A stretch of 8,952 nt of DNA, from IMG/VR virus record IMGVR_UViG_2627854008_000013. One strand, 5' to 3'. The stretch is from a virus. Lineage: Duplodnaviria; Heunggongvirae; Uroviricota; Caudoviricetes. A program made the position numbers and the translations under genes. The notes under the pieces are model-generated. The model made no database searches. It was not told where the DNA came from and was given only the letters and a program-made list of their open reading frames with translations. Position 1 is the stretch's first letter. Each line of letters starts with the position of its first letter. This document shows positions 6,991-8,128 of this stretch, in pieces.

Positions 6991-7640
6991 GCCACCATCT
7001 CCCTGACCAGTTTTTCCGCCTGCTGGCGAACCTGCGCCAGAAATGCCTCACCACATGCCTCAAGTTCATCGCGCCCGATGTAGCTGATTGCCGGTCCCTT
7101 CCAGGTCTTGTCGAAAACAGCAATAGCACCAGCGAAGAAAGCACCTGTTGGCACCTGCTTTTCGTCTTTCGGGATAAACCAGGCAGGCAGTTCAAAACCA
7201 ATACGCCCGCGAATAAAAGCAATATGATCTGCATCTTCCGGCCACCACACTTCGCTGGTGGCAGCTTTGATCAGGAAAACATAGCGCCCGCCTTTATCAC
7301 GCATGGCACTGGCATGCTTCATGATGTAACGCATGCCGATGATGTATTGCCCCTCATGCTGACTGGCGCGGCTGTACGGGGGATTGCCAAAGGCAGCACC
7401 TTTAAGCTCCGCAAGACGTTCTGACCAGTCATGCGCCAGCGCGTTGTCTTCCGCCGTGTAATACGCGGCACATTTGGCGTTATCACCGTCAGTGAACAGA
7501 TCCAGAACAAACGGACCAAACAAGGTGTTAATTCCCCAGAAAATGTTGTCCGGCGTGCGCCACTGATCGCCCACTTCCTTCAGTTCATGGGCTGGTTTGT
7601 TCCGCAGTTCCACCAGCGCCTGGCAATATTTATTACTCAT
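6987..7640 (-). CDS. Phage Dam-type DNA N6-adenine methyltransferase (217 aa)
   Basis: NPPY catalytic motif at residues 86-89 (AAFGNPPYSRA) and a WRTP element near the N-terminus, consistent with the small phage N6-adenine MTase family. Start ATG 7638-7640 overlaps the upstream stop (TAATG). Confidence 0.75.
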   Translation of the reverse strand: MSNKYCQALVELRNKPAHELKEVGDQWRTPDNIFWGINTLFGPFVLDLFTDGDNAKCAAYYTAEDNALAHDWSERLAELKGAAFGNPPYSRASQHEGQYIIGMRYIMKHASAMRDKGGRYVFLIKAATSEVWWPEDADHIAFIRGRIGFELPAWFIPKDEKQVPTGAFFAGAIAVFDKTWKGPAISYIGRDELEACGEAFLAQVRQQAEKLVREMVA

Positions 7641-8128
7641 TAAGCCCCCACGTAATTCCCTGACAGATACCACTCATCACCCGATACAGCGCGCTTACTG
7701 CTTTTCCGTAAACACTGCTCACGACGCGCCAGAAAATTGTTTCGTTCTGGCTGGGAGTGGCTTTCACGGAATGCCGCCATCCACACCGTTGCAGCACGAC
7801 GGTATAAGCCCCTGGACTCCAGTTCTTCCGCCTGGCGGGTCAGGCACAAAATCTCCCGCGGGTCGTTAGTGCCGACATAGAAATTGCGCACAGGTCTGGT
7901 TTCACGAACTGGTTGCGGTTCCGCCTCCTGCGCTCTCTCAGTCAGGCGCGGGAAATGTCTGCGTGTATCCCCTTCACAACGGTGAGCCACACGACCACTC
8001 TGACGTAATTTGCTTGCTGACTGCAGAACGCACTGCCGTGAGTAACCTGCAAAAGCATCCGCAATGTCTCCGGAAGTACACCCCGGATGGGCTTCAATGA
8101 ATTTCTGAACTTCATTCAAAAGACTCAT
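7640..8128 (-). CDS. Phage protein with C-terminal PerC-like motif (162 aa from ATG 8126-8128)
   Basis: C-terminal segment LESRGLYRRAATVWMAAFRESHSQPERNNFLARREQCL resembles the PerC/Pch signature as I recall it (LEAKGLWRRAATRW...). G-rich SD (GGGGGGG) before the ATG, which overlaps the stop of the truncated upstream gene (ATGA). The ORF-track extension to 8305 runs into the IS and uses rare codons. Confidence 0.55.
   Translation of the reverse strand: MSLLNEVQKFIEAHPGCTSGDIADAFAGYSRQCVLQSASKLRQSGRVAHRCEGDTRRHFPRLTERAQEAEPQPVRETRPVRNFYVGTNDPREILCLTRQAEELESRGLYRRAATVWMAAFRESHSQPERNNFLARREQCLRKSSKRAVSGDEWYLSGNYVGA

Follow-up and report, generated by a model that had tools for sequence, protein, structure and literature searches.

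The subject of this report is an open reading frame in an 8,952-nucleotide stretch of DNA from a Caudoviricetes virus (IMG/VR virus record IMGVR_UViG_2627854008_000013), hereafter called the window. This reading frame is an intact orthologue of Escherichia coli K-12 yfdN. Its product carries the three-helix core of the PerC family near the C-terminal end, and the N-terminal region is a folded, MarR/BlaI-like winged-helix domain for which DNA binding is predicted. The yfdN gene is already known and annotated (RefSeq, PHROGs), with its function uncharacterised, and the finding, although real, is an ordinary one. The gene and its ribosome-binding site are as follows.

7640 to 8128, minus strand: yfdN-type coding sequence of 162 codons plus a TAA stop, encoding a PerC-family protein with a predicted N-terminal winged helix (from the open reading frame, its translation, Pfam, and PHROG).
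8132 to 8139, minus strand: Shine–Dalgarno sequence AGGGGGGG, 3 nucleotides 5′ of the yfdN ATG (read from the sequence and from junction comparison across loci).

The encoded protein is identical to K-12 YfdN (b2357, from the cryptic prophage CPS-53/KpLE1) at 153 of 162 residues (94%) over its full length. It is 96 to 99% identical to proteins that the annotation pipeline of NCBI (PGAP) calls “PerC family transcriptional regulator,” some of which bear the gene label yfdN. The model for PHROG 1324 (“transcriptional activator”) matches residues 1 to 161 with an E value of 5.9e-77. The Pfam PerC profile (PF06069) matches residues 98 to 151 with 39 bits, relative to a gathering cut-off of 22.6 bits (E 9.8e-10, profile positions 5–58 of 90), and it likewise matches all 30 of the diverse YfdN family members that were tested, well outside chance expectation. 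Thus, the PerC-family assignment proposed by an earlier, sequence-only reading of this DNA stands, and both motifs quoted in its support are present in the translation: GLYRRAATVWM as residues 107 to 117 and ERNNFLARREQCL as residues 128 to 140.

The 162-codon reading frame is delimited by an ATG at position 8128 and a TAA at positions 7642 to 7640, and this start is well supported because it is preceded by the strong Shine–Dalgarno sequence named above and opens with the M-S-L residues common to nearly all YfdN homologues in the family alignment. The PGAP models begin two codons earlier at a GTG, whereas that codon is GGG in the window, and therefore the conserved ATG is the start here. A 221-residue reading frame from a TTG at position 8305, which has no in-frame stop upstream, was considered and set aside as an artefact. 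Among 54 distinct alleles, variable sites fall at codon positions 1, 2, and 3 in the numbers 14, 19, and 51, a bias which demonstrates that yfdN is a real gene under purifying selection.

The gene is also widespread. A 1-kb query around yfdN is covered over at least 80% of its length in 2002 of the 5426 complete E. coli genomes searched, and the gene is present in 57 phage records, including SfV (orf40), SfIV, SfII, mEp460, ST64B (sb43), and many Stx2c phages. Previous work has termed yfdN “the K12 unique PerC homologue” (PMC5931665). Two further observations come from screens only: a glycogen phenotype upon YfdN overexpression (PMC2853380), and a 12.6-fold increase in yfdN expression, alongside other prophage genes, in strain CFT073 treated with nitric oxide (PMC5320621).

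The two-part organization of the protein was examined with an AlphaFold2 model for which 30 diverse members of the family were aligned. The model has a mean predicted local distance difference test (pLDDT) score of 79.7 and contains two confident domains, from which, together with the profile matches and alignments, four segments can be distinguished.

7949 to 8128, minus strand: residues 1 to 60, predicted winged-helix domain with helices at 3–13, 19–25, and 31–44 and a β-hairpin at 47–52/55–60.
7862 to 7948, minus strand: residues 61 to 89, variable and probably disordered linker (low pLDDT, and variable length and sequence in the alignment).
7700 to 7861, minus strand: residues 90 to 143, PerC three-helix core with helices at 90–106, 109–122, and 126–143 (Pfam, model, and alignments).
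7643 to 7699, minus strand: residues 144 to 162, C-terminal tail with the motif W153-x-L155-x-G157-x-Y159-V-G161 (alignments; low model confidence).

The PerC core is modeled with pLDDT values of 90 to 95 and includes residues L103, R111, A112, R136, and C139, which are invariant in the family alignment. Values drop to 47 to 48 over linker residues 61 to 80, with residues 64 to 79 below 50. In the tail, G157 and G161 are nearly invariant in one family alignment, as are W153, L155, and Y159 in a second. The sequence-only reading had assigned the PerC signature to the C-terminal 40 residues and regarded the preceding ∼100 residues as unrelated sequence. The signature is indeed there, but the core extends over about 55 residues and is followed by a tail of 19, and what precedes it is, according to the model and the profile matches, a winged helix joined to the core by a linker of ∼29 residues.

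Several lines of evidence point to the identity of the N-terminal domain. In the model, its three helices are followed by a two-stranded β-hairpin wing, which is the winged-helix fold. A profile prepared from 35 N-domains of the family, when compared with the sequences of the PDB, matches BlaI (E 1.5e-4) and a MarR/EmrR protein (E 1.7e-4), as well as MarR and MecI. The PHROG “MarR family” model is matched by 21 of these 35 N-domains, and Penicillinase_R, MarR_2, and HTH_24 of Pfam give sub-threshold matches in several YfdN family members. A BFVD fold search returned generic winged-helix matches only, and nothing significant was found when the whole protein sequence was searched against the PDB. 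The domain differs from the MarR family in that the MarR dimerisation helices are not present in YfdN.

Our comparison with PerC and Pch proteins is based on the Pfam model and on the sequences of PchA-type proteins, PchD, and PchE, rather than on PerC of enteropathogenic E. coli (EPEC). A tblastn search of plasmids for EPEC PerC yielded matches which, among those inspected, were group-1 pch-like genes and not perC. YfdN shares with PerC/PchA/B/C the core pattern A..LE..G-L-Y-R-R-A...W......R....R..C, and the window protein is 40% identical over 50 residues to a 104-residue group-1 Pch protein. When YfdN is aligned with PchA-type proteins, PchD, PchE, and short homologues, residues A100, L103, G107, R111, A112, and C139 are invariant, and the Pch likeness of the signature noted previously is borne out by this alignment.

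Outside the core, the resemblance ends. The Pch proteins are single-domain proteins of 104 (group-1/PchA-type), 89 (PchD), and 90 (PchE) residues that lack a winged helix, and in them the PerC core is N-terminal and followed by a different C-terminal region, whereas the core of YfdN lies near its C-terminal end. The W-x-L-x-G-x-Y-V-G tail of YfdN is absent from PchA-type proteins, PchD, and PchE. YfdN is therefore not a PerC/Pch protein in the strict sense, which would be a small, single-domain protein of ∼89 to 104 residues with a Pch-type C-terminal region. Genomic settings differ as well, as the group-1 pch genes adjoin the lysis/late region of prophages, whereas yfdN resides in an early operon. 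PchD, PchE, and the PerC-family proteins of phage-inducible chromosomal islands (PICIs), such as EcCIMP1_025, also combine a PerC core, a mobile element, and replication-gene neighbors (pchE comes after primase and single-stranded DNA-binding protein genes in Sp7), but these proteins do not have the winged-helix domain.

The two-domain layout is not restricted to close relatives of the K-12 protein. When 1.84 billion cluster representatives were searched exhaustively with HMMER, 106 proteins were recovered with E values up to 1e-3, many of which are 140 to 165 residues long and align end to end with 25 to 46% identity, and further proteins of ∼140 residues have a divergent N-domain of the same pattern. 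A search for related loci with a narrower family alignment gave near-identical loci only. The layout is thus kept down to ∼25% identity. As judged from these sequences, the extended PerC architecture defines a distinct and coherent subfamily, which is the catalogued YfdN/PHROG 1324 family. The sequence-only reading had suggested that this architecture may be a distinct subfamily; distinct it is, since PHROG 1324 matches over the full length and Pch proteins lack the N-domain, but with K-12 YfdN at 94% identity it is not new.

We consider it moderately probable that YfdN is an accessory modulator of transcription from the phage early operon, produced on prophage induction, wherein the winged helix anchors the protein to DNA and the PerC core supplies a Pch-type activity. 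In such a mechanism, the winged helix would be YfdN’s own DNA anchor, unlike the situation in the 89- to 104-residue PerC/Pch proteins. The PerC domain would act as it does in Pch, either remodeling or displacing silencing complexes of H-NS, StpA, and Hha or contacting another regulator, and the sites of action would be AT-rich phage or host promoters. Activation by Pch of LEE1, in the enterocyte effacement locus (LEE), is known to proceed only through relief of H-NS/StpA/Hha silencing, with DNA occupied in vivo, and this activation is lost when the silencing proteins are removed (PMC4764244). The targets of YfdN, and whether it activates or represses them, are not predictable from sequence.

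Some observations weigh against this proposal. H-NS was not co-precipitated with PchA, and no direct interaction between Pch and H-NS was found (PMC4764244). PerC-family members also vary in that they activate, ignore, or repress the LEE: PchD and PchE affect ler little or not at all (PMC5931665), and the PICI-encoded PerC-family protein EcCIMP1_025 represses LEE1 (PMC11773190). Scans of the window revealed no promoter-like or terminator-like sites near yfdN, and repeats there occur at chance level only. Finally, an interactome study from 2025 still classes YfdN as uncharacterised.

These differences among family members bear directly on the suggestion, made in the sequence-only reading, that a prophage PerC-like protein of this type may cross-talk with host virulence by activating ler. 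That YfdN is a functional PerC/Pch analogue activating ler (LEE1) in attaching/effacing hosts could be argued from the shared PerC core and its 40% identity to group-1 Pch. Indeed, Uhlich et al. removed yfdN as a precaution from their K-12 ler-lacZ reporter strain (PMC5931665). However, because members that share the core differ in their effects, with PchD and PchE nearly inert toward ler and the PICI protein a repressor of LEE1, membership in the family gives no prediction of ler activation. PchE, for instance, represses curli and activates flagella. YfdN moreover lacks the Pch C-terminal region, its Pfam match being confined to the first two-thirds of the profile; its presence in roughly 2000 of the 5426 complete E. 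coli genomes gives no hint of a LEE-specific role; and the window carries no LEE gene. We regard a ler activator as extremely improbable, and cross-talk of YfdN with ler as an unsupported proposal that would be pure extrapolation.

The main alternative is that YfdN has no DNA-binding activity and works through protein contacts alone, its PerC domain functioning like an ANR protein to sequester a transcription factor or a nucleoid protein, and its winged helix serving as a second protein-docking module in the manner of the T4 MotA N-terminal domain or RPA32C. Both of these protein-binding winged helices are in fact among the top structural matches of the N-domain. The members of the ANR family (Aar, Cnr, and Rnr) have three predicted helices and the residue pattern A, E, A, W, A, R, C, and the published ANR signature maps to A100, E104, A112, W116, A119, R135, and C139 of YfdN. 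A kinship between PerC and ANR proteins has been suspected by others (PMC11773190), and these correspondences suggest that the two are probably distant relatives. Yet YfdN scores only 22.2 bits with the NCBIfam ANR model (NF033650; E 9e-5), below its cut-off of 32, whereas it exceeds the cut-off of PerC. ANRs are furthermore single-domain anti-activators of less than 10 kDa that belong to AraC-type virulence regulons and not to phage early operons, whereas YfdN has 162 residues and two domains, and the profile of its N-domain resembles DNA-binding winged helix-turn-helix proteins. On balance, we find a protein-only mode of action unlikely, and retain transcription modulation through a DNA-anchored PerC core as the preferred interpretation.

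The genomic neighborhood of yfdN was also examined. Two features adjoin the gene in the window.

6987 to 7640, minus strand: gene for a Dam-type N6-adenine methyltransferase (Pfam Dam, PF05869, E 1.1e-45).
8125 to 8292, minus strand: 3′ remnant of an O-like replication-initiator gene, a 53-residue reading frame ending in ...DYSQIPAGFRGGL.

Phages of E. coli, Salmonella, and Klebsiella, as well as metagenomic phages, show the gene order cI/cro/cII-like/initiator/yfdN/dam/rusA/.../Q. In K-12, yfdO (initiator), yfdN, and yfdM (methyltransferase) follow one another, and the corresponding genes do so in SfV, ST64B, and other loci. The window conforms to this synteny of the YfdN family with an initiator remnant upstream and dam downstream, and 3′ of dam it has rusA, genes for a KilA-N protein and a DUF968/HNH protein, and Q. 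The placement in the “nin region” given earlier was thus roughly right, as yfdN has the replication-initiator gene on one side and dam/rusA/.../Q on the other. The ATG of dam (7640–7638) overlaps the yfdN stop as TAATG, an overlap of 1 nucleotide that is also present in the PGAP annotation of a related locus, and which indicates that the two genes are translationally coupled. On the other side, the TGA of the initiator remnant overlaps the yfdN ATG (ATGA), and the yfdN Shine–Dalgarno sequence sits inside the final initiator codons (F-R-G-G). In SfV, mEp390, cdtI, and many relatives, a gene of the LexA_DNA_bind type encoding ∼108 residues (SfV orf42-like) occupies the interval between dam and rusA; it is not in the window, where rusA begins within the stop region of dam.

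The initiator remnant is 100% identical over 51 residues to the C-terminus of a 272-residue “replication protein” of the SfV orf39 type, and it is matched by PHROGs 270/391 (“replication initiation”). Initiators upstream of yfdN more generally belong to PHROGs 270, 391, 428, and 9773 and to Pfam HTH_36 with or without Phg_2220_C, and can be described as O-like or DnaD-like. In every locus examined, yfdN directly follows the initiator gene, with a stop-to-start distance of 0 to 11 nucleotides. This slot is occupied in 80 of 80 close IMG/VR loci, in SfV and ST64B, and also in the more distant loci of Salmonella F1055, Klebsiella Kp4866-6, and several metagenomic contigs, whose proteins show only 25 to 46% identity. 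The gene is nevertheless dispensable: in mEp390 no yfdN separates a tailed initiator gene from the one after it, and cdtI and 23 tailed initiator loci of IMG/VR likewise lack it. Thus, yfdN is accessory and optional, a cassette whose slot after the initiator gene is fixed, in the early-right (delayed-early) operon of lambdoid phages of the SfV/ST64B/CPS-53 type.

Two natural alleles illustrate loss of the gene. In cdtI (NC_009514; positions 3099–3195 of the locus compared), an in-frame deletion of 396 nucleotides removes residues 27 to 158 and leaves a 31-residue peptide, MSLLNEVQKFIEAHPGCTSGDIADAF-YVGD, with the TAATG coupling to dam kept. In Stx2a_WGPS2 (AP012537, about 9725–9970), yfdN is annotated as interrupted by an insertion sequence (IS), which makes it, like the cdtI allele, a natural loss-of-function allele.

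The fixed position after the initiator gene also raises the question of a direct role in replication. YfdN could occupy the slot of lambda P (the helicase loader) or Ren as a partner of the O-like initiator, docking on the initiator tail ...DYSQIPxGFRG. Such a role would fit the invariable adjacency of the two genes, the absence of any P, DnaC, or DnaB gene from the annotated SfV and ST64B regions, the homology between one initiator C-domain type and the lambda O C-terminal domain (E 7e-26), and the retention of the same tail by mosaic initiators with several types of N- and C-domain. There is also a faint likeness of the N-domain to lambda Ren, which sits in the same slot right after the replication genes and is translationally coupled but has no PerC domain. 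The N-domain matches PHROG 142 with E 0.0023, and 5 of the 35 N-domains do so at E values up to 0.01, both of which are weak. In an hhalign comparison, lambda Ren (96 residues, 2281–2571 of the lambda locus compared, as a single sequence) shares the hydrophobic pattern of the winged-helix region over two helices, the recognition helix, and the hairpin, but the probability of 20 to 28% is not significant.

Other observations speak against a P-type partner. No sequence similarity exists between YfdN and lambda P. Among IMG/VR initiators of the Phg_2220_C type, the tail is present in 56 of 57; a YfdN-like gene then follows in 33 of these 56, whereas a methyltransferase or antirepressor gene follows in the other 23. 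As 23 of 56 tailed initiators have no YfdN-like gene, the tail is not tied to YfdN. Related phages that retain the initiator thus lack YfdN or carry a deletion of it, which is not the behavior of a lambda P-type loader; these phages include mEp390 and also cdtI, a phage called “inducible” in the title of the paper that describes it. A P-slot partnership with the initiator is therefore largely rejected, and we judge it quite improbable at best.

A related idea is that the winged-helix/PerC proteins are optional accessory factors of the replication module, acting on the O-like initiator or together with it, rather than general activators of transcription. Possible modes of action include docking on the ...IPxGFRG tail or opening an AT-rich, H-NS-bound origin region. 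If true, this would account for the restriction of the gene to a coupled slot right after the initiator gene, across phages of E. coli, Salmonella, and Klebsiella without a helicase-loader gene. We nonetheless hold it to be decidedly improbable, and continue to favor the modulation of transcription on prophage induction.

The initiator tail is of interest in its own right. The ending ...(D)Y(S)x-I-P-x-G-F-R-G, which in the window falls within 8125 to 8200, is common to initiators whose N-terminal domains, and likewise whose C-terminal domains, are of three or more unrelated types. It is kept at the protein level with differing codons, with or without a YfdN-like gene next to it, and its final codons also provide the Shine–Dalgarno sequence of the next gene. 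The tail may act as a docking peptide that a host replication protein recognizes.

In the window, the initiator gene has been cut by a mobile element, in which respect this locus differs from those of K-12 YfdN and its orthologues.

8293 to 8952, minus strand, as yfdN: partial IS3-family insertion sequence that runs off the window, with transposase orfB.

The reading frame at 8299 to 8952 matches the NCBIfam model transpos_IS3 with 244.7 bits, relative to a cut-off of 160. Similarity to intact prophages ends at window position 8292, and the element accordingly cuts the initiator gene at about 8293, leaving its last ∼53 codons. The IS end, TGAAGTGGTCAACAAAAACTGGCC, looks IS911-like. Because the initiator is truncated, the prophage is replication-defective, and the insertion severs the yfdN-dam-rusA-...-Q operon from the early promoter of the phage. 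Transcripts of yfdN at this locus, if any, would thus have to come from read-through out of the IS or from an internal promoter.

Additional features were noted elsewhere in the window. Three tRNA genes (Arg-TCT, Arg-TCG, and Met/Ile-CAT) lie at positions 2465 to 2714 on the minus strand, downstream of both Q and the gene for a DNA methylase. This arrangement is as found upstream of stx in Stx phages, and related E. coli prophages hold Stx2 genes at that location. In the window, only ∼500 bp (1963–2464) intervene before DUF1737 and SASA-esterase (nanS-p-like) genes, and the window thus looks like an stx-negative relative of the late region of Stx2 phages. Just downstream of the Q region, a 96-residue reading frame (3964–4254, minus strand) matches PHROG 331 (unknown function, E 3e-43) and gives weak matches to the winged-helix Pfam models TrmB, MarR_2, and DprA_WH, and it may encode a second small winged-helix protein.

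The implications for the PerC family are twofold. First, membership in the family, by itself, is no ground for predicting ler activation. Second, the N-terminal part of YfdN, in which Pfam, NCBIfam, and PHROG searches give no confident domain, is a winged helix, which makes YfdN-type proteins two-domain proteins, in contrast to the short PerC/Pch proteins studied to date. As a gene of K-12, yfdN would also offer easy access to how a PerC domain acts when it stands beside a predicted DNA-binding module of its own.

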